From positions 3,643 to 67,642 of the forward strand of contig JALSRZ010000062.1 of NCBI GenBank assembly GCA_026984515.1: 64,000 nt of DNA. Direction: 5' to 3'. The notes under the pieces were generated by a model. That model made no database searches. It saw nothing but the letters and a program-made list of their open reading frames with translations, and was not told the origin of the DNA. This document shows positions 4,760-64,000 of the stretch, one piece after another; position 1 is the first letter of the stretch; every line of letters starts with the position of its first letter. Made by a program: the position numbers and the translations under genes. This stretch comes from Thiohalobacter sp. Lineage in GTDB: Bacteria > Pseudomonadota > Gammaproteobacteria > DSM-19610.

Positions 4760-5404
4760 ATGGAAAAATTCTCAGTACTGAACGGCCTGGTGGCACCGCT
4801 GGACCGGCCTAACGTGGATACCGACGCCATTATCCCCAAGCAGTACCTCAAGTCGGTCAAGCGCACCGGTTTCGGGCCCAACCTGTTCGACGACTGGCGC
4901 TACCTCGATCCCGGGGAACCGGGGCAGGATCACAGTCAACGCCGGCTGAACCCGGACTTCGTGCTCAACCAGCCGCGTTATGCCGGTGCGCAGATCCTGC
5001 TGGGTCGGGAAAACTTCGGCTGCGGGTCATCGCGTGAACACGCTGTGTGGGCGCTGGAAGACGCGGGTTTCCGGGTGGTGATTGCCCCGGGTTTTGCGGA
5101 CATCTTTTTCAATAACTGCTTCAAGAACGGCGTGCTGCCGATTGTGCTGGACGCGGAAATCATGGACCGGCTGTTTGCCGAAGTCGAGGCGTGCGAAGGC
5201 TACCGCCTGAAAGTCGATCTCGAGGCGCAGAGCCTTACTACACCCGCAGGCGAGGTGATCGGTTTCGAGGTGGATGAGTTCCGCAAGTATTGTCTGCTCA
5301 ACGGCCTGGACGACATTGGCCTGACCTTGCAGCACGTCGATGAAATTCGCGCCTACGAGGAACGCCGGCGGCAGCAGGCCCCGTGGTTGTTCGGGGCAGA
5401 GTGA
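4760..5404 (+). CDS. leuD: 3-isopropylmalate dehydratase small subunit
   Basis: [13 protein letters not shown] and [11 protein letters not shown]. Confidence 0.98.
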
Positions 5405-5563
5405 ACGTTAACAGGCCCCGGGCAGATCACGTCTTCCCCGTTCACTTTTGTAACGCGCACACAGCCATGTGCGGCTTGCTCCATATCATTCAAAACGTAC
5501 CTGCTGCCTGCTTTTATCTGCACGGGTTACCGGTTAACAGGACAGCAGTGAGGATAGACGGTT

Positions 5564-6634
5564 ATGAAAAAAATTCTGGTTCTCCCCGGTGACGGCATCG
5601 GCCCGGAGATTGTTGCGGAAGCGGTAAAGGTACTGGAACGGCTGCGGGCCGATGGGCTGGAGGTGGAACTGGAACACGGCCTGGTCGGTGGTTCCGCCTA
5701 CGATGCCAAAGGGCACCCGTTGCCGGAACAGACGCTGGTCCAGGCGCGTGCAGCGGATGCCATCCTGCTGGGAGCGGTCGGTGGTCCGCAGTACGAGGCG
5801 CTGGAACGCCCCCTGCGTCCGGAGCAGGGGCTGCTGGGACTGCGTTCCGGGCTGGAACTGTTTTCCAACCTGCGACCGGCGATCCTGTACCCGCAGCTGG
5901 CGGATGCTTCCACACTGAAACCCGAAGTGGTGTCCGGGCTGGATATCATGATCGTGCGCGAGCTGACCGGCGGCATCTATTTCGGCGAGCCGCGCGGTGT
6001 ACGCACCCTGGACAATGGCGAGCAGGAAGGGTTCAACACGCTGGTCTACCGTGAATCGGAGATTGAACGCATCGGCCGTTCCGCGTTCGAAATCGCGCAG
6101 AAGCGCGGCCGGCGCCTGTGCTCGGTGGACAAGGCCAACGTGCTGGAAGTGACCGAACTGTGGCGCCAGGTCATGCTGCGTATTGCGCAGGACTATGCGG
6201 ATGTCGAACTGACCCACATGTACGTGGACAACGCCGCCATGCAACTGGTGCGCGCACCCAAACAGTTCGACGTGGTGGTGACTGCCAATATGTTCGGCGA
6301 TATTCTCTCGGACGCAGCGGCCATGCTGACAGGCTCGATCGGTATGCTGCCTTCGGCCTCGCTGGATGCGGATGGCAAGGGTATGTACGAGCCTATTCAC
6401 GGCTCGGCACCGGACATCGCAGGGCAGGGCGTGGCGAACCCGCTGGCGACCATCCTGTCCGTGGCCATGATGCTGCGTTACAGTTTTGGCTGGTCCGAAG
6501 CAGCCGATCGTATCGAGGCAGCGGTAGGCCGGGTGCTGGACCAGGGGCTGCGCACGCCGGATATCGCCGCCGAGGGTCAGGCAAGCGTGGGTACCGCGCA
6601 GATGGGTGATGCCGTTGTCGCGGCACTGGGTTGA
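5564..6634 (+). CDS. leuB: 3-isopropylmalate dehydrogenase
   Basis: [18 protein letters not shown] and [12 protein letters not shown]. Confidence 0.98.
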
Positions 6635-6658
6635 ATCGATACAGTACACTAGTGAATG

Positions 6659-6747
6659 CCCCGTCATGGCGAACGCAGTGAAGCAATCGTTGCCCGTTTG
6701 CGGCGCTGTTGCGGGAGTCCGGCTGCGCCATGTTCATAGTGACGGGC
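6659..6747. repeat. Degenerate palindromic intergenic element (CCCGTCAT...GAAGCAATC...TGACGGG)
   Basis: Terminal inverted repeat CCCGTCA/TGACGGG; shares GTCAT..GAACGCAGTGA with 54449-54482. Confidence 0.5.
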
Positions 6748-6778
6748 TTGGCAGGTTTTCAGGAGTCAGGAGCAGGTT

Positions 6779-7801
6779 ATGAGTCGTACATTTGATGTGG
6801 CGGTCGTCGGAGCCACCGGCGCGGTCGGTGAAGTCATGCTGGAGATACTCGCCGAACGCAAGTTCCCGGTGGGTGAAGTCCATGCGCTGGCCAGTGAACG
6901 CTCCGCCGGCAAGCGGGTACCGTTCGGTGACCGCAGTCTTACCATACAGAATCTGGCCGATTTTGATTTTTCCCGCGTGCAGATCGGTCTTTTTTCCGCC
7001 GGTGCATCGATATCCAAAGCGTATGCGCCGAAGGCTGCGGCCGCCGGCTGTGTGGTGATCGATAATACCTCGCAGTTTCGTTATGACGACGAAATTCCGC
7101 TGGTGGTGCCGGAGGTCAACCCGGACCGGGTCGCCCGGTATAAGGATCACGGCATCATTGCCAACCCCAATTGCTCCACCATCCAGATGCTGGTGGCGCT
7201 GAAGCCGATCTACGACGCCGTGGGTATCGAGCGCATCAATGTCTGCACCTACCAGGCGGTATCCGGTACCGGCAAGGAGGCCATCGAGGAACTGGCGGGG
7301 CAGACAGCCAGGCTGCTGAATTCAAAAGACATAGAGGCCAGTGTATACCCGAAGCAGATCGCGTTTAACGTGTTGCCGCATATCGACGTGTTCCAGGACA
7401 ACGGTTATACCAAGGAAGAAATGAAAATGGTGTGGGAAACGCGCAAGATCATGGGCGACGAAACGATCCAGGTGAACCCCACCGCGGTGCGCGTACCGGT
7501 GTTTTTCGGGCACTCCGAGGCGCTGCATATAGAAACCCGCGACAAAATGAGCGCGCCGCAGTGTCGTGAGCTGCTGGCAGCCGCACCGGGCATTGAAGTG
7601 CTGGATGAACCGCGCGACGGGGGCTACCCGACGGCGGTTACCGAGGGCGCCGGCAGCGATCCGGTGTACGTAGGTCGCATTCGTGAAGATATCTCGCATC
7701 CCAGAGGTTTAGATTTATGGGTGGTCGCCGATAATGTGCGCAAAGGGGCAGCCCTGAACAGCATTCAGATTGCTGAATTGCTGATAAAAAACCACCTCTG
7801 A
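6779..7801 (+). CDS. asd: Aspartate-semialdehyde dehydrogenase
   Basis: VVGATGAVG, IIANPNCSTIQM and DNVRKGAALN. Confidence 0.97.
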   Translation: MSRTFDVAVVGATGAVGEVMLEILAERKFPVGEVHALASERSAGKRVPFGDRSLTIQNLADFDFSRVQIGLFSAGASISKAYAPKAAAAGCVVIDNTSQFRYDDEIPLVVPEVNPDRVARYKDHGIIANPNCSTIQMLVALKPIYDAVGIERINVCTYQAVSGTGKEAIEELAGQTARLLNSKDIEASVYPKQIAFNVLPHIDVFQDNGYTKEEMKMVWETRKIMGDETIQVNPTAVRVPVFFGHSEALHIETRDKMSAPQCRELLAAAPGIEVLDEPRDGGYPTAVTEGAGSDPVYVGRIREDISHPRGLDLWVVADNVRKGAALNSIQIAELLIKNHL

Positions 7802-34736: not shown

Positions 34737-35009
34737 ATGAATAAAGCTGAGTTAATTGATGCAGTCGCAAGTTCCACGGATCTTTCCAAAGCCGATGCGA
34801 CCCGGGCCGTTGATGCCGTGATCGACAACATCACCGATACACTGCGCGGTGGTGATTCGGTGACCCTGGTCGGTTTCGGTACCTTTGAAGTGCGTTCGCG
34901 CGCTGCGCGCACCGGTCGTAACCCGCAGACCGGTGAAACCATCCAGATCAAGGCCTCCAGGGCCCCCGCCTTTAAGGCTGGCAAAGCCTTTAAGGATGCC
35001 GTAAACTAG
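34737..35009 (+). CDS. hupB: DNA-binding protein HU
   Basis: [23 protein letters not shown]; lon-hupB synteny. Confidence 0.96.
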
Positions 35010-57198: not shown

Positions 57199-58642
57199 AC
57201 GCAGGGAAACCGCACTGCGCTGGCGCAGAACCAAGATCATCGCGACGCTGGGTCCTGCCTCCGCTTCCTACTCCATGATCGAGGAACTGATCGCTGCGGG
57301 GATCGATGTGGTGCGAGTGAATATGTCGCACGGTGATCACCCGACGCACACCCGTACGGTACAGAGAGTGCGGCGCGCCGCCAGGCGGGCCGGGCGGCAC
57401 ATTGCCATCCTGCTGGACCTGTGTGGTCCCAAGATCCGGGTCGGCAACTTTGCAGGCGGCTGTATTGAACTCCGTACCGGGGAGACGGTTACGGTAAGCA
57501 CTCGACGGGTGACCGGTGGCCCCGGACTTATCCCGTCGCAGTACCGCAGCCTGCACAAGGATGTGCGTGCGGGTGAAAGGATCCTGCTCGACGATGGCAA
57601 ACTGGAACTGCGCGTGCGATCGGTCAAGGGCACGGAGGTCACCTGTCGCGTAATCGAGGGTGGGGTACTGTCTGACCACAAGGGTATGAACCTGCCCAAC
57701 TCGGTCCTGTCCACGGCGGCGCTGACCGACAAGGATCGTACCGATGTACGGCTGGCCATCGAGCTGGGTGTGGATTTCGTGGCACTCAGTTTTGTCCGTT
57801 CGGCAAAAGATGTGCTGCAGCTGAAACGTTATATGAAACGCGCCGGGGGGAACATACCGGTCATCAGCAAGATCGAGCGCCCGGAAGCGGTCGATGCCAT
57901 CGACGATATCATGGACACCTCCTACGGCATCATGATTGCGCGTGGTGACCTGGGTATCGAGCTGCCGGCAGAGAAAGTACCGTTGATACAGCGTGAGCTG
58001 ATTGCAAAAGGTCGTCAGAAAGGCATACCCGTCATTGTTGCCACCCAGATGCTGGAATCCATGATGAGCAGTTCCCGGCCAACGCGCGCGGAAGTGACCG
58101 ACGTGGCCGGGGCAGCCATGTTGAGTGCGGATGCGGCCATGCTGTCCGGGGAGACCGCTGCGGGCCATTTTCCCCTGCAGGCGGTGCGCATCATGGACCG
58201 GGTATTGCGCGAGGTGGAGCAGCACCAGTGGCAGGAAGGCTGCTTTGCCAGTGAGCCGATTACCGACCGCGGCAGCAAGGCGCAGGTGGTGCGCGAGTCC
58301 ATGTCGCACGCAGCGGTTCAACTGGCACACGACCTGGCGGTGGAAGCCATTATTGTTCCCACCCACACCGGCAATACCGCCCGCATCATGGCATCCCACC
58401 GGCCGCTGGCGCCCACGGTCGGCGCCTGCTCGGACGAACGGGTCTGCCGGCAGATGACGTTGAACTGGGGCATCGTTCCCGTGCAGCTGGAAGCATCCAG
58501 GGAACACGACTGGCGGGCAATTTGCGAGCACATCGCGCAGCAGTGCCAGTTGGGCAGGAAAGGACGCGATGTGTTGCTGGTGTCCGGGTTCAACGACGAC
58601 CCCAAACGGGACGAGCCGGTGTTGAAGTTGCTGCACCTGTAG
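57191..58642 (+). CDS. pyk: Pyruvate kinase
   Basis: TKIIATLGP, DLCGPKIR, IMIARGDLG, ATQMLESM and MLSGETA. Confidence 0.96.
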   Translation: MTERRETALRWRRTKIIATLGPASASYSMIEELIAAGIDVVRVNMSHGDHPTHTRTVQRVRRAARRAGRHIAILLDLCGPKIRVGNFAGGCIELRTGETVTVSTRRVTGGPGLIPSQYRSLHKDVRAGERILLDDGKLELRVRSVKGTEVTCRVIEGGVLSDHKGMNLPNSVLSTAALTDKDRTDVRLAIELGVDFVALSFVRSAKDVLQLKRYMKRAGGNIPVISKIERPEAVDAIDDIMDTSYGIMIARGDLGIELPAEKVPLIQRELIAKGRQKGIPVIVATQMLESMMSSSRPTRAEVTDVAGAAMLSADAAMLSGETAAGHFPLQAVRIMDRVLREVEQHQWQEGCFASEPITDRGSKAQVVRESMSHAAVQLAHDLAVEAIIVPTHTGNTARIMASHRPLAPTVGACSDERVCRQMTLNWGIVPVQLEASREHDWRAICEHIAQQCQLGRKGRDVLLVSGFNDDPKRDEPVLKLLHL

Positions 58643-58651
58643 CGGGTCTGC

Positions 58652-60094
58652 ATGAGCACGGGCACACACCAGTACGATCTGCTCATCGTCGGCGCCGGTG
58701 TGTCGGGAAGCGCATTGCTGTATCTCACCGCGCGTTTTACCGATATCGGCAATATTGGCGTGATTGAAAAATACGCGGCACCGGCGCGCGTCAATTCGCT
58801 GTCCAGCAACAACAGCCAGACGCTGCACTGCGGCGATATTGAAACCAACTACACCCTGGAAAAAGCGCTCAAGGTGCAGCGCGCCGCACGCATGCTGGCG
58901 TCGTACTGCCTGAACCAGCCGGACCGGGATCACCTGATCTACCGGTATCCAAAGATGGTGCTGGGTGTGGGCCAACAGGAGTGCGAGCTGTTACGCGAGC
59001 GCTTCCGGGTATTCAGTCCGCATTACCCCAAGCTGCAATTACTGGATCGGAAAGCCATTGCTGCGATCGAACCGGCTGTGGTCACGACGGCGGGCGGGAA
59101 AATGCGTGAGCAAGAGCTGGTCGCGCTCGGTTCCACGGATGAGTACACCGCGGTGAATTTCGAAGCACTGTCACGCTCCTTCGTCCGGCAGGCGCAGCAG
59201 GTGGAAGGCAAACACATCGATCTTCACTACAACGAGACTGTGAAACACATCAGGATCGAGGATGACCGCTTCCTGGTGGAGACCGGCAGCACCGGTTACC
59301 AGGCGCGCGCACTGGTAGTCTGCGCCGGTGGTCACAGCCTGATGCTTGCCCAGAACCTGGGCTATGGCCTGCATTATTCCTGTCTCCCGGTAGCCGGCAG
59401 CTATTACTTCACTCCGCAGGTGCTGAACGGCAAGGTATACACAGTGCAGAATGACAAGCTGCCGTTTGCCGCGATCCACGGCGACCCGGACGTGCTGGTG
59501 CCCGGCAAAACGCGCTTCGGGCCCACGGCACTGATCCTGCCGCTGCTGGAACGCTATAACTATCATACGTTGCGCGATTTCCTGCGGGTGTTTCGTTTCG
59601 ACCGGCGTGTGGCCAGGGTGTTATGGGACCTGTTCAGGGTGCCGGACATCCGTAACTACATGCTGAAAAACGTACTGTTTGAAATCCCCTTCATCCGTAA
59701 AATCCTGTTCCTGCGGGATGTGCGCAAGATTGTGCCGTCCCTGCGTTACCGGGACCTGTCGTTTGCCCGCAAGGTGGGCGGTATCCGTCCACAGCTGATC
59801 GATAAAAAACAACGCCGCCTGCTGATGGGGGAAGCAAAGATCGATACCGGCCGCGGGGCTATCTTCAATATGACGCCTTCGCCCGGTGGTACTTCCTGCC
59901 TGGAGAATGCCGAGATCGATATGCGCGCGATTGCGGGGTATCTCGATGCCGTGATCGATGAAAAGGCCCTGCGGGAAGAACTGCCCGGTGTGGATACGGA
60001 ACACGGCGTCGAGGATTTCACCGGCCGCCTGCTGGATGCAGCCAGCCGCCCGATAGGCCGCTTGAAGCGACTGTTGCGCAAACTGAAAGGCTGA
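58652..60094 (+). CDS. FAD-dependent oxidoreductase, probable malate:quinone oxidoreductase (Campylobacterota-like type)
   Basis: IVGAGVSG, NNSQTLHCGDIETNY, PFAAIHGD, GIRPQLID and MTPSPG. Confidence 0.75.
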   Translation: MSTGTHQYDLLIVGAGVSGSALLYLTARFTDIGNIGVIEKYAAPARVNSLSSNNSQTLHCGDIETNYTLEKALKVQRAARMLASYCLNQPDRDHLIYRYPKMVLGVGQQECELLRERFRVFSPHYPKLQLLDRKAIAAIEPAVVTTAGGKMREQELVALGSTDEYTAVNFEALSRSFVRQAQQVEGKHIDLHYNETVKHIRIEDDRFLVETGSTGYQARALVVCAGGHSLMLAQNLGYGLHYSCLPVAGSYYFTPQVLNGKVYTVQNDKLPFAAIHGDPDVLVPGKTRFGPTALILPLLERYNYHTLRDFLRVFRFDRRVARVLWDLFRVPDIRNYMLKNVLFEIPFIRKILFLRDVRKIVPSLRYRDLSFARKVGGIRPQLIDKKQRRLLMGEAKIDTGRGAIFNMTPSPGGTSCLENAEIDMRAIAGYLDAVIDEKALREELPGVDTEHGVEDFTGRLLDAASRPIGRLKRLLRKLKG

Positions 60095-60103
60095 GCCGTC
60101 ACC

Positions 60104-60874
60104 ATGAGCATACTCTGGGAGCGCACCGCGGGTGCTACGCATTACGAGGTGCGCCAGGCGGGGCGTTCCCTGCGGCTGTATACCAACGGTGTGCTGCACA
60201 GCCAGTACAATCCCGCCCGGCCGTTGACCGGCAGTGTCTGGGACCTGCTGTTCCTGCCGGTTTTTTTCTACCCGCCCGATCACGTGCGCCGGGTGCTGGT
60301 GCTCGGTGTCGGTGGTGGTGCGGTCATACAGCAGTTACGTCGTTTTGTGCGACCCGACAGGATTGTCGGTGTCGACCTGAATGCCGTGCACCTGTCGATT
60401 GCGCGCCGTTTCTTTGCGGTGAGGGGCAGGGACGTACAGCTGGTCAGGGCCAATGCAGTGACGTGGGTGAAACAGTACCGGGGTGCACCGTTTGACCTGA
60501 TTATCGACGACCTGTTCAGTGATGTGGATGGCGAACCGCAACGTGCGGTGTATGCCGACCGGGCATGGGTCGATTTGCTCCGTGGCTGTTTGTCGCGGCA
60601 GGGCATGATCGTTGCCAATTTTGCGTCGCGCCCCGAACTGATGATGTCTGCCTACCTGGATGACGGAGTGTTGCGACAGGGCTTTCATTCGGGGTTTTAT
60701 CTCAGCACCGTGCAAAACTACAATGCAGTGGGGGTATTCCTGAACAAGCCGGCAACCAGCCGGCAACTGCGTGATCGTCTTCGCAAGGTAGCGCAACTCG
60801 ATCCGCGCCGACGTACCGCGCGGCCGGGGTACCGCATCCGCACTCTTAAACCGGCCGGATTGCAGCATGACTGA
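60104..60874 (+). CDS. Class I SAM-dependent methyltransferase (spermidine-synthase-like fold)
   Basis: VLVLGVGGG, VGVDLN and DLIIDDLF. Confidence 0.78.
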   Translation: MSILWERTAGATHYEVRQAGRSLRLYTNGVLHSQYNPARPLTGSVWDLLFLPVFFYPPDHVRRVLVLGVGGGAVIQQLRRFVRPDRIVGVDLNAVHLSIARRFFAVRGRDVQLVRANAVTWVKQYRGAPFDLIIDDLFSDVDGEPQRAVYADRAWVDLLRGCLSRQGMIVANFASRPELMMSAYLDDGVLRQGFHSGFYLSTVQNYNAVGVFLNKPATSRQLRDRLRKVAQLDPRRRTARPGYRIRTLKPAGLQHD

Positions 60875-61175
60875 CAAGGGCAGCACACCGGACCTGCAGC
60901 GGCAAACCGCGAGGATTCACTGGCGGGAGCTGGAGCCGCATTTTGCCCGCGGTGTGGTGATTCACGTCTCGGGGGATCTCGACCTGGTGGAAGTGGCTGT
61001 CTGCTTTGCCGGTGACGAGCGGGTTGCCGTGGAAAAATGGCTGGTATCCGGACAGATCGGGCATCTCGCTACCGGGGTCGCCGGGGACTGGAGCCGCACT
61101 GCCCCCGAGCTGTGGGCGGTGGTGGTGGCGCCCTGGGTACTGGTGCAGGAGCGGTGCGTCGAACAGCACTATTGA
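60867..61175 (+). CDS. DUF2288-like small protein
   Basis: IHWRELEPHFARG, DLVEVA and WAVVVAPWVLVQE. Confidence 0.8.
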   Translation: MTDKGSTPDLQRQTARIHWRELEPHFARGVVIHVSGDLDLVEVAVCFAGDERVAVEKWLVSGQIGHLATGVAGDWSRTAPELWAVVVAPWVLVQERCVEQHY

Positions 61176-61186
61176 GGCGCACATAC

Positions 61187-61400
61187 TTATCCACAAAATC
61201 TGTGGATAAGTATGTGGATGAATCTTCGATTACGATCGCTTTCCGTGTTTTTTACCGAGCCGGCTTTAGATCGGCCAATTTTTCACCAATTTGATAAAGC
61301 ATATAAAAATCAAAAATATATATGAGTTATTTAAAGATGACAAAAAGTCATATTGGTTTTGCGCTGTCATTTTCGCATATCCTGTTTTTGCTGTGCATAA
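61187..61400. promoter_or_regulatory. Cluster of four DnaA boxes with an AT-rich tract and IHF-like site
   Basis: TTATCCACA 61187-61195, TGTGGATAA 61201-61209, TGTGGATGA 61213-61221, TGTGCATAA 61392-61400; AATCAAAAATATA 61308-61320. Confidence 0.8.
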
Positions 61401-61536
61401 CCACTTGCTTATATGCAAATACAGGACGTTTCTGCAGGCGCCATGTGGAGTGCGAAGTCACTGCGGTTCCGTTAACCGGTAACCCGAGCGGATAAACGCG
61501 GGTAGCCGGTACGTTTTGAACGATGGGGGGCAACCC

Positions 61537-61651
61537 GGACATGGGACCGGTACCGCTGGATCAAGACCGTCTGCCGCAGGGATGCGGCAGCCGAGCGGCC
61601 ATGGATGGCCTGTTTTGCGTGTCTTGATCCAGCGGTACCGGTCCCATGTCC
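61537..61651. repeat. 115-bp element with a perfect 31-bp inverted repeat
   Basis: GGACATGGGACCGGTACCGCTGGATCAAGAC and its exact reverse complement; two small internal hairpins. Confidence 0.85.
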
Positions 61652-61801
61652 TCACCTGTGTGCGCGTTGTAAAAGTTAGCGGGACAGCAGTGGTGCTGCA
61701 AAGTATCTTATACTCTCCGGAACCGCGGAAAGGACGCTTGCAGGATGCTGTGGAGCAAATCCTGGCCCGGTTTCCGCCACCGAAAAACAGGAATGACAGC
61801 A

Positions 61802-62047
61802 ATGGGTGTTTCCATACGAGGCTTGATGATGGACCGTGGCGGCGTGGTGCAGGAACGCTTTGCAGTCGTCTATGCGCCGAAAAAGAAGAAACGCCTGCCG
61901 GCCAGTTGTGTCTGCCTGGTGGACAGCGAACAGGCCGCCCTGGAAGCTTCCAGCCCGGACCGGCACCGGCACGCTGCGCTGGTTGCCGGCCCGTCCACCT
62001 CCTCTGAAAGTCAGCAGTTGTACTACCTGGTGCGCTGGCTGAACTGA
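61802..62047 (+). CDS. Small hypothetical protein (~81 aa)
   Basis: MGVSIRGLMMDRGGVVQ..AGPSTSSESQQLYYLVRWL; start uncertain (61802 or 61826). Confidence 0.65.
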   Translation: MGVSIRGLMMDRGGVVQERFAVVYAPKKKKRLPASCVCLVDSEQAALEASSPDRHRHAALVAGPSTSSESQQLYYLVRWLN

Positions 62048-62170
62048 CCATACCCGTCGCGGCCGGCCTGGCCTGGCCGCATAACACGCGTAAAAACAAA
62101 GACTTGATCCTGCGCACCGTGAGCGCTTACAGCCATTCAGTTTGGCGGATTTACGCCGATAATAAGCACA

Positions 62171-62184
62171 TTGATATCAATCAG
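62171..62184 (+). promoter_or_regulatory. FNR/Anr-like box upstream of the diguanylate cyclase
   Basis: TTGAT-ATCA-ATCAG, one mismatch to TTGAT-N4-ATCAA. Confidence 0.4.
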
Positions 62185-62219
62185 TTATCGTCCCATGCAC
62201 GGAGGCGCCCGGTTACATC

Positions 62220-64000
62220 ATGTTTTCGGATCGATCCAGGTACGTCATTGTCGGCGGGTTCAGCGCCGTCATGCTGCTGATGCTGACGGTTATCCTGATC
62301 GGCTATACGCAAATGACGCAGAACATGCGCCTGTCGGAGCGACTGGTAAGTAACCAGACGAAGAAGAACAATCACGTGATGCTGATGTATTCCGCCGTGC
62401 GCGAGCGCTCGGCCAGCCTGTTGCGTATGGTGGTCAGTGACGATCCGTTTGAACGGGACAACGAGTACCTTCATTTCAATGCCCTGGCGACGCAGTTTGT
62501 CGTCAATCGCGATGCCCTGTATGAGTTGCTGGAAACCAGGCGGGAAAAGGAATTTTTCCAGACCCAGCGAATGTTGACCGAAGCGTCGGCGCCGCTCCAG
62601 GACCAGGTGGCTGCGCTGCTGATCGATGATCACGATGAGGAGGCTATCGCCCTGCTTCGGGACCGGGCCATGCCCGCGCAGCAGAAAGTGCTGGTCTTCC
62701 TGCACGACATGCTGGAGTGGCAGGAGCAGGAAGTAAAACGTGCGATCGCCCGGGCCTACAGCAGTGATCGTGATACGGCCGTTGTCATGGGTTTCCTGGT
62801 GGTCGTTTCTGCGCTGATCGCGCTGGTCATCATTCGCTTCGTGGTGCGCAAGACCGACCTGGCCGAGCAGGCACTGATTGCCAAGGTCACTTTTGAGTCC
62901 ATTGGTGATGCGGTGATTACCACCAACGTATCCGGCAGGATCAGTTACCTGAACCGGCGCGCGCAACAACTCACCGGCTGGGAAGAAGCAGACGTGCTGG
63001 GGCGTCCGCTGGACGAGGTGCTCCTGCTCGAAGCGGATGAGAGTCCTTCCGGGGTGGAAGACCGTTACCGGCTGCGTACCGAATCCGGTACGGAACTCTG
63101 TGTGGATATGTCCAGGGCGCCCATACGCAGCGATACCGGCCAGCAGCTTGGCACGGTGGTGATCCTGCGTGACATTACCCAGCGCAAGGAAGTCGAGGAG
63201 ACCCTGCGCCGGAACGAAGAGCGTTTTGCACTGATCACGCGTGGCACCAATGACGGGATATGGGACTACAACCTGGAAACCGGCGAGATCTATTTCTCGG
63301 AGCGCTGGAAGACCATGCTGGGGTATGACGGTCACGAGTTCGGCAACAGTTTCCACGCCTGGCAATGCCTGATCCACGAGAACGACCTGGGCGCCATCCT
63401 GCACGCCTGGACCGAGTGCATGGCGGGCACAACCCAGTCCTTTTCGGTCGAGTACCGCATGATCACCAAGGAAGGAGAATGGAAGTGGGTGGAATGTCGT
63501 GGCCTGGTGCTGTTGTCCGAGCAGGGTACTCCCATCCGGCTGGCCGGTTCCCATACCGATATTTCACAACGCAAGGCTTCCGAGGAGAAGCTGTTATGGA
63601 GTTCCACGCACGACGGCCTGACCGGTCTGGTCAACCGCCATGCGTTCGAACAACGCCTGGATACGGAGTTGCGGCAGGCACGCCGGGCGGACGTGGAACA
63701 CGCGCTGCTGTATGTCGACCTCGATCAGTTCAAGGTGATCAACGATACCTGCGGTCACGTGGCCGGTGACCAGTTGCTGCGGCAATTGTCGGCCCTGCTG
63801 GCGAGAAAGGTGCGGGGTTCGGATATGCTGGCGCGGCTGGGCGGGGACGAGTTTGCGGTGTTCCTGAAGGATTGCCCGGTCGCCAAGGCAGTCAGCCATG
63901 CCAACCTGATTCGTGAAGTGATTGAAGAGTACTGTTTCGTGTGGGAGAAACAGACCTTCAGGGTAGGGGCCAGTATCGGTGTGGTGGCGATCAACCGTGC
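62220..64000 (+). CDS. Membrane sensor-PAS-PAS-GGDEF diguanylate cyclase (3' end off the window; absent from the ORF track)
   Basis: Hand translation: two TM helices around a periplasmic four-helix sensor, ESIGDAVITT (PAS), GTNDGIWDYN (PAS), HDGLTGLVNR, VDLDQFKVINDTCGH and ARLGGDEF in frame from 62220. Confidence 0.92.
   Translation, partial: MFSDRSRYVIVGGFSAVMLLMLTVILIGYTQMTQNMRLSERLVSNQTKKNNHVMLMYSAVRERSASLLRMVVSDDPFERDNEYLHFNALATQFVVNRDALYELLETRREKEFFQTQRMLTEASAPLQDQVAALLIDDHDEEAIALLRDRAMPAQQKVLVFLHDMLEWQEQEVKRAIARAYSSDRDTAVVMGFLVVVSALIALVIIRFVVRKTDLAEQALIAKVTFESIGDAVITTNVSGRISYLNRRAQQLTGWEEADVLGRPLDEVLLLEADESPSGVEDRYRLRTESGTELCVDMSRAPIRSDTGQQLGTVVILRDITQRKEVEETLRRNEERFALITRGTNDGIWDYNLETGEIYFSERWKTMLGYDGHEFGNSFHAWQCLIHENDLGAILHAWTECMAGTTQSFSVEYRMITKEGEWKWVECRGLVLLSEQGTPIRLAGSHTDISQRKASEEKLLWSSTHDGLTGLVNRHAFEQRLDTELRQARRADVEHALLYVDLDQFKVINDTCGHVAGDQLLRQLSALLARKVRGSDMLARLGGDEFAVFLKDCPVAKAVSHANLIREVIEEYCFVWEKQTFRVGASIGVVAINR

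Follow-up and report, generated by a model that had tools for sequence, protein, structure and literature searches.

A conserved DnaA-box module with a DARS-type layout outside the replication origin in Thiohalobacter sp., with its core present in many members of the class

The stretch of DNA analysed here (the window) comprises 64,000 nucleotides of contig JALSRZ010000062.1 in a Thiohalobacter sp. draft assembly (GCA_026984515.1; 3.37 Mb, 189 contigs, G+C 0.60). It contains a non-coding module of 214 bp (61187-61400, plus strand) made up of three closely set DnaA boxes arranged as in the DnaA-reactivating sequences (DARS) of Escherichia coli, an A+T-rich middle with sites resembling those of integration host factor (IHF), and a distal fourth DnaA box. 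The module follows a DUF2288 gene (60867-61175), the stop codon of which falls 11 bp before box I, and precedes by ~800 bp a gene for a 4HB_MCP-PAS-GGDEF protein (from 62220); a first-pass annotation of the window, made by a model from the sequence alone, had likewise placed the cluster between DUF2288 and a diguanylate cyclase. Box I (TTATCCACA, 61187-61195, plus strand) is perfect and is unchanged across 17 orthologous loci. Box II, also perfect, reads TGTGGATAA on the plus strand (61201-61209, minus orientation) and stands head-to-head with box I across a 5-bp spacer, AAATC, and box III (TGTGGATGA on the plus strand, 61213-61221, one mismatch) follows in the orientation of box II after a further 3 bp, GTA. 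Both spacers were read from the sequence, and this trio is as the first-pass annotation described it. Counting from box I, the A+T-rich middle holds an IHF-like site on the minus strand at +97 (CACCAATTTGATA, 61284-61296, one mismatch to YAANNNNTTGATW) and one on the plus strand at +121 (AATCAAAAATATA, 61308-61320, one mismatch to WATCAANNNNTTR), the second of which had already been pointed out. Box IV lies at +205 (TGTGCATAA on the plus strand, 61392-61400, minus orientation), and the midpoint between boxes III and IV, ~+120, is the IHF position. The existence of this fourth box was correctly noted, but its description as perfect holds only for the relaxed motif TTATNCACA, as it has one mismatch to TTATCCACA.

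The window contains two perfect DnaA boxes where 0.18 are expected from shuffled sequence. Genome-wide (3.37 Mb) there are 142 sites matching TTWTNCACA, and opposed box pairs with spacers of 0 to 15 bp number exactly three, every one of them head-to-head with 5 bp. The count of such pairs proposed in the first-pass annotation thus yields three sites, all with the full module layout: C62:64829 (the window copy), C28:21672 and C125:6588. Each of them has its box III at +26 and its box IV between +205 and +207, but the intervening DNA has diverged; the three are therefore old paralogues of one functional layout rather than a recent repeat. The C125 copy (C125:6588-6794) belongs to an orthologous group found beside lon. 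The C28 copy (C28:21672-21879) lies 320 bp from a contig end beside small open reading frames (ORFs), one with a weak match to a Rap1a immunity protein; it has an orthologue with the same spacer in genome G045 and is the only one of the three to run counter to the local GC skew.

A scan of 34 genomes of the genus with a 33-nt core pattern (up to three mismatches) found the core in 33 of them, at one to five copies each, so that the module is conserved in related genomes, a check suggested when it was first noticed. In 32 loci anchored on box I, box II is at +14 without exception, box III at +26 with at most one mismatch in 26, and a fourth box of the same orientation at +204 to +207 in 28, and G+C is 0.19 to 0.31 at +75 to +150 versus ~0.6 in the flanks. 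The copy in the window belongs to a group of 12 loci from at least 12 species, each downstream of a pair of genes encoding a spermidine-synthase-like methyltransferase and DUF2288. A second group of 14 loci, including C125, lies directly upstream of lon (within ~100 bp) and divergent from it, and a few copies such as C28 are found in other contexts. Proteins flanking orthologues of the window copy are only 55 to 66% identical and the boxes are invariant; together with the presence of the core in 33 of 34 genomes, this indicates strong purifying selection on the module. The gene downstream of the orthologues varies, being GGDEF in the window and in the closest named metagenome-assembled genome (MAG), and an ORF followed by NnrS in the complete congener G019. 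The named record closest to the window, HyVt-581, is a gammaproteobacterial MAG from a hydrothermal vent, with shared synteny and 92-94% protein identity; one genus locus matches a MAG labelled Thiogranum across 280 aligned bases. Most genus loci (27/32) are co-directional with the leading strand, although these represent only about three orthologous groups; we do not claim a fixed orientation relative to replication, as complete genomes elsewhere in the class show both. The location of a DnaA-box module at the lon promoter in 14 genomes is a possible regulatory link to this protease.

Alignment of 17 orthologous loci resolves at least seven conserved blocks, in the order core, GTTAAATCG..AA....TCATCAATT, AAAACA...AG.TA (at the IHF position), the palindrome TGACAGAAAGTCA, TTT.G..CTG.AATTT.C, box IV and CT.ATAT. 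The second of these is genus-conserved, with GTTAAATCG present at +70 to +79 (at most one mismatch) in 25 of the 32 genus loci, and takes the form CTTTAGATCGG...CACCAATT in the window (61264-61295, plus strand). The small palindrome, ATGAC-AAAAA-GTCAT in the window, spans 61337-61351 (+150 to +164), and the block after it 61355-61374 (plus strand). The last, CTTGCTTATATGC in the window (61404-61416, plus strand), is kept in the orthologous DUF2288-adjacent copies only and is possibly a -10-like element. Boxes I and II also lie within a perfect inverted repeat that has 16-bp arms and a loop of 5 nt (61180-61216; arms 61180-61195 and 61201-61216), whose 7-bp extension outside the two boxes is specific to the genome of the window and missing from the orthologues.

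The module extends well beyond the genus. The pattern TTWTCCAC-N6-TGTGGATAA-N3-TGTG, with one mismatch allowed, matched 280 of 401 genomes of the class (229 of 320 genera), and in a phylum sample it matched 61 of 81 genomes of the same class and 69 of 219 from other classes. The same kind of pattern written backwards had no match in the 34 genus genomes, one in the 401 class genomes and none in the 301 phylum genomes, neither in its same-class nor in its other-class part, and a chance cluster can be excluded. Eighty class-wide copies from ~78 families were examined: box IV falls at +200 to +208 in ~50 of them (mode +203), a forward IHF site with at most one mismatch at +105 to +145 in 54 (opposite orientation, 12), and a perfect forward IHF consensus at +119 to +122 in 23. 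The +121 site of the window lies exactly within this last interval. In a scan of named genomes that left out the window's own record, the exact matches listed include Rhodocyclaceae (Sulfuritalea, Propionivibrio, Accumulibacter), Nitrosomonas, Granulosicoccus, Methylomicrobium, Thiohalobacter, Thiogranum, Alkalilimnicola, a Mariprofundaceae MAG and others. The element is class-wide and not special to the Thiohalobacter lineage. Some genomes carry arrays or near pairs: two Granulosicoccus records have three tandem exact cores ~550-600 bp apart (5182-6391 in one, 5806-6925 in the other), one class genome has copies 2 kb apart (G121) and another has five copies (G141).

GC skew is positive throughout the window with no switch, and dnaA is on a separate contig (C182) with boxes of its own, in agreement with the earlier statement that the cluster lies away from any origin gene. 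In the complete congener G019 (2,916,906 bp; skew from 20-kb samples every 145 kb), skew turns from negative to positive between 20 and 145 kb, coinciding with dnaA at 123 kb, and reverts near 1.6 Mb. One copy of the module in this genome, at 1,153,975, adjoins lon, and another, at 2,043,241, adjoins the methyltransferase-DUF2288 pair and is the orthologue of the window copy, 1.0 Mb from both dnaA and the skew switch; they are ~71% and ~69% along the two replichores. Because the window has no skew switch and the G019 orthologue is this far from dnaA and the switch, the module is, as had been surmised, something other than the chromosomal origin, oriC. Neither dnaA nor nrdA is found downstream of the module in the relatives examined, which also disposes of the idea, raised in the first-pass annotation, of a leftover promoter of either gene.

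We compared the window base by base with the corresponding regions of E. coli MG1655 (NC_000913.3). The core in the window (TTATCCACA-aaatc-TGTGGATAA-gta-TGTGGATGA, from 61187) is identical in box orientations and in its 5-bp and 3-bp spacers to DARS1 (TTATCCACT-attcc-TGTGGATAA-cca-TGTGTATTA, from 813107 in the bioD-uvrB spacer) and to DARS2 (TTATTCACC-ttttc-TGTGGATAG-agt-TGTGAAGAA, 2969135-2969169 in the rppH/ygdT-mutH spacer), so that the DARS-like architecture originally suspected agrees to the base pair. This trio has been defined as essential for nucleotide exchange at DARS1 and DARS2, and its spacings, including the 5 bp, are kept in both and in predicted candidates (PMC6868365). With DARS2 the likeness continues beyond the core: on the box III side, ~95-135 bp from box I, come two IHF-type sites that point in opposite directions, the reverse site at +93 in DARS2 (IHF-binding site 1, IBS1) and +97 in the window and the forward site at +109 (IBS2) and +121, followed by a further DnaA box at +211 and +205 respectively, in an intergenic location off oriC and in a host that encodes DnaA, Hda, IHF and Fis (PMC4245941, PMC4585315). 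The palindrome at 61337-61351 occupies, by visual comparison only, the place of the DARS2 Fis-binding sites FBS2-3, and DARS2 has a GTGAC-CCAG-GTCAC palindrome nearby, at +155. The differences are that the two IHF-type sites are 3 bp apart in DARS2 and 11 bp in the window, where the forward site is 12 bp farther out; that the core boxes are near-perfect in the window whereas each DARS2 core box has a mismatch; that box IV is strongly conserved in the present module and dispensable in DARS2 (PMC4245941); and that the genome of the window has three copies against a single DARS2. The neighbours differ as well, DARS2 being at mutH and DARS1 at uvrB, and the modules here at methyltransferase-DUF2288/GGDEF, lon and small ORFs. 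Our placement of the DARS2 core follows the deletion primers MutH-9 and MutH-10 (PMC4585315) and agrees with the PciI site beside the DARS2 IHF sites (PMC11724364); both rule out as the core a second head-to-head pair in this region, TTATCCCAG-ctttc-TGTGGATAA (2969451-2969480), 316 bp away. That second pair, which has an IHF-like AATCAGAGAATTG to its right at +120, probably includes one or two of the dispensable DARS2 boxes IV-VI and looks like a decayed second module.

DARS1 shares with the window the trio, the spacers and high-affinity boxes I and II, with TGTGTATTA rather than TGTGGATGA as box III, but it lacks an IHF consensus at ~+121, the nearest box-like 9-mer of the same orientation is at +223, and a fragment of 70-101 bp is active with neither IHF nor Fis (PMC6868365, PMC11724364). 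The E. coli datA locus (glyVXY-queG spacer), a site of DnaA-ATP hydrolysis, likewise groups DnaA boxes away from the origin, with a single IHF site in the centre, and its function relies on an IHF-made loop between box groups (PMC11724364). Its plan differs, however, running from box 2 over ~56 bp to the IBS and over a further ~84-90 bp to the box 7/3 pair with its 3-bp spacer; it is without the I-5-II-3-III trio, and its biochemical outcome is opposite to that of DARS. Because the trio spacing and the IHF and box IV positions match DARS2 and the datA plan does not, the module resembles DARS, DARS2 in particular, and not datA. In Bacillus subtilis, which is without Hda, IHF, DARS and datA, DnaA-box clusters outside oriC modulate initiation by titration (PMC13220808); these are non-origin like the present module but have neither the DARS trio nor IHF.

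The genome encodes proteins with which such a module would be expected to work, namely Hda, IHF-alpha, HU and Fis; the fis gene (NF001659, 106 bits, cut-off 99) immediately follows dusB, an arrangement shared with E. coli. Its DnaA is 68% identical to that of E. coli, with the DNA-binding domain IV stretch almost entirely identical and the contacts of this domain invariant, and pairwise alignment shows conservation of Leu290, which is needed for E. coli DARS1 and DARS2 activity. A gene for an HU-beta-like protein lies on the same contig ~26 kb upstream of the module (window 34737-35006; C62:38379-38648).

We consider the best explanation to be a chromosomal DnaA-control module homologous to E. 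coli DARS, closest in layout to DARS2 and having DARS function, with a probability of roughly 0.6. Two components of this reading, the layout homology with DARS and the module being a selected candidate site for DnaA and IHF binding outside the origin, are very well supported by the sequence comparisons. DnaA binding, DNA bending and nucleotide release are what we infer from the layout, and would proceed as follows. ADP-DnaA produced by Hda-dependent inactivation would bind boxes I, II and III, with the protomers on I and II opposed across the 5-bp spacer and that on III stacked head-to-tail onto that on II. IHF or a similar bending protein at ~+97 to +133 of the A+T-rich middle would then fold the DNA and return DnaA bound at box IV (+205) to the core, and the strained complex would let go of ADP, leaving free DnaA to take up ATP. 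With three copies off oriC, the supply of active DnaA would be coupled to gene dosage and nucleoid-protein state.

Several observations weigh against this reading. One concerns DnaA itself, in which the Gln208 position is occupied by Ala (SERFVADM versus SERFVQDM in E. coli). Gln208 is needed for DARS-dependent ADP release in E. coli in vitro and in vivo, and the Q208A change lowers DARS1-dependent release from ~90% to ~40%, while excess DARS2 is no longer toxic to cells carrying it (PMC6868365). Ala is moreover the commonest residue at this position among sampled DnaA proteins of the class (~21/30), in genomes with or without the core. The E. coli head-to-head contact is therefore not conserved as such and cannot simply be assumed here, and it is because of this substitution that we keep open whether the module reactivates or titrates DnaA. 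Sequence alone cannot decide between the two. The datA locus, too, is an IHF-looped set of DnaA boxes, with the opposite job. The IHF-like sites in the window have one mismatch each and lie in A+T-rich DNA, where such matches come cheaply, and only 8 of the 32 genus loci have a site with at most one mismatch at +120/121. The draft assembly, rated 99.99% complete, has no above-threshold match for ihfB (TIGR00988), probably reflecting an assembly gap, since ihfB is present in 28 of 34 congeners; for the same reason loss of IHF-beta is ruled out as the cause of the weak genus consensus. Box IV is reversed relative to that of DARS2, and inspection by eye of +140 to +190 found no match to the Fis consensus GNNYANNNNNTRNNC.

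The main alternative is that the module serves as a sink for DnaA or as an inactivating site of the datA type, at which IHF-looped DnaA oligomers would titrate DnaA or speed ATP hydrolysis and so lower initiation potential. High-affinity boxes with a central IHF site between box groups also follow datA logic (PMC11724364), the residue missing from DnaA is one tied to DARS activity in E. coli, and the far better class-wide conservation of box IV than of its dispensable E. coli counterpart suggests that the loop matters. We nevertheless regard this reading as unlikely: datA has no head-to-head 5-bp pair joined 3 bp farther on by another box; the essential pair there is 3-bp spaced with the IBS 84-90 bp off, and the exact trio found here is the feature essential for DARS1 and DARS2 nucleotide exchange (PMC6868365). 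Our scan, being defined by the trio, is uninformative on a separate datA in this genome. Decidedly improbable is a role as DnaA operators for transcription of neighbouring genes, that is, of lon at the paralogue or of the GGDEF gene from a promoter overlapping box IV, with no part in the nucleotide cycle. The lon-group copies within ~100 bp of that gene, the CT.ATAT block after box IV and the overlap of E. coli DARS1 with the uvrB promoter region would suit such operators, but the 214-bp layout recurs beside unrelated genes both within the genome and across the class, the downstream neighbour changes from GGDEF to NnrS between the window and G019, and the upstream gene, which stops 11 bp before box I, is not controlled from the module. 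A promoter scan gave nothing beyond chance, and a simple operator would not require a fixed 205-bp architecture and an IHF site.

A second chromosomal origin, or that of an integrated plasmid or element, would bring an A+T-rich unwinding region, and the boxes do flank a tract of G+C 0.19-0.31 in a genome of 0.60, with GATC inside a conserved block. It is nonetheless highly improbable given three copies per genome, one to five in most class genomes, positive skew over the full window, copies ~1 Mb from the dnaA-coincident switch in the complete congener, and flanks made up of housekeeping genes whose synteny is conserved and among which rep, par and integrase genes are absent. We find scarcely credible both a chance cluster, against which the near-total lack of control matches speaks, and a hairpin in RNA, or a terminator, behind the DUF2288 gene. 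The 16-bp perfect palindrome does begin 5 bp past the stop codon and draws weak miRNA-type Rfam matches only, but it is not followed by a T-run, and orthologues keep boxes III and IV, which lie beyond it, but not the part of it outside boxes I and II. A further reading that we hold as possible, if doubtful, is that the selected unit is an older, phylum-wide module of four boxes and an IHF site (core, IHF at +121, box IV at +203) working with DnaA proteins that lack Gln208, of which E. coli DARS1 and DARS2 would be derived, trimmed forms. If so, the IHF loop between box IV and the core might switch DnaA either way according to nucleotide state, and several dosage-sensitive copies would set initiation timing in most Pseudomonadota.

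Current models of initiation timing in E. coli give DARS1, DARS2 and datA a central place, yet these loci have been studied in E. coli only, and the accessible papers regard them as belonging to its close relatives. The same device, precise to the base pair, is found here under strong selection and in three copies in a distant gammaproteobacterial genus that includes a Thiogranum-labelled MAG. By the descriptions in the accessible parts of the literature, DARS has been characterised only in E. coli, with candidates in Vibrio and 'E. coli-proximal' beta- and gamma-proteobacteria (PMC6090056, PMC5742627, PMC4245941), candidates in other species having been predicted by Fujimitsu 2009 (as cited in PMC6868365, PMC6090056) and Kasho 2014 (PMC4245941). 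Such candidates with conserved core spacings include Vibrio cholerae and, as described in the citing papers, are based on uvrB/mutH synteny and on close E. coli relatives (PMC6868365, PMC6090056, PMC5742627, PMC4245941); the present module differs in its unrelated gene context, its distant sulfur-oxidiser lineage and a unit that includes a fixed fourth box. The claim that no such locus has been characterised in this lineage accordingly stands, but candidates elsewhere had already been predicted and the element is class-wide. Our literature search, outside which the primary 2009 DARS paper lay, found no description of a module spread across the class in which both the IHF site and the fourth box hold fixed positions. 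The comparative data point to a conserved unit that exceeds the E. coli core and is class-wide to phylum-wide, and DARS-type control of replication timing probably reaches far beyond the relatives of E. coli. The module coexists with DnaA proteins lacking the residue thought to drive ADP release, and the 214-bp fragment offers a concrete and cheap test object for the effect and its direction on E. coli or cognate DnaA; it also shows what in the E. coli model holds more generally.

Other features of this part of the window are minor. Promoter and terminator scans at the module gave nothing exceeding shuffled expectation; a 'terminator' predicted at 61259-61275 is part of a conserved DNA block, and its hairpin is not kept in the paralogues. 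An Rfam scan of 58000-64000 gave no above-threshold match at the module, the weak miRNA-type matches reflecting the palindrome. A small ORF at 61322-61495 and an ORF at 61745-62047 have no family match and were treated as non-coding. Between them, at 61537-61651, is a perfect inverted repeat of 31 nt whose loop measures 53 nt, with a sub-threshold match to the Rfam family TwoAYGGAY (38.6 bits; gathering score 43). It belongs to a dispersed palindromic repeat of which other contigs of the same genome carry ~40 or more copies, complete or partial, and it is not present at the equivalent spot in the closest relative; for these two reasons it looks like an insertion of the miniature inverted-repeat transposable element (MITE) or repetitive extragenic palindromic (REP) type just past the DnaA module rather than a part of it.

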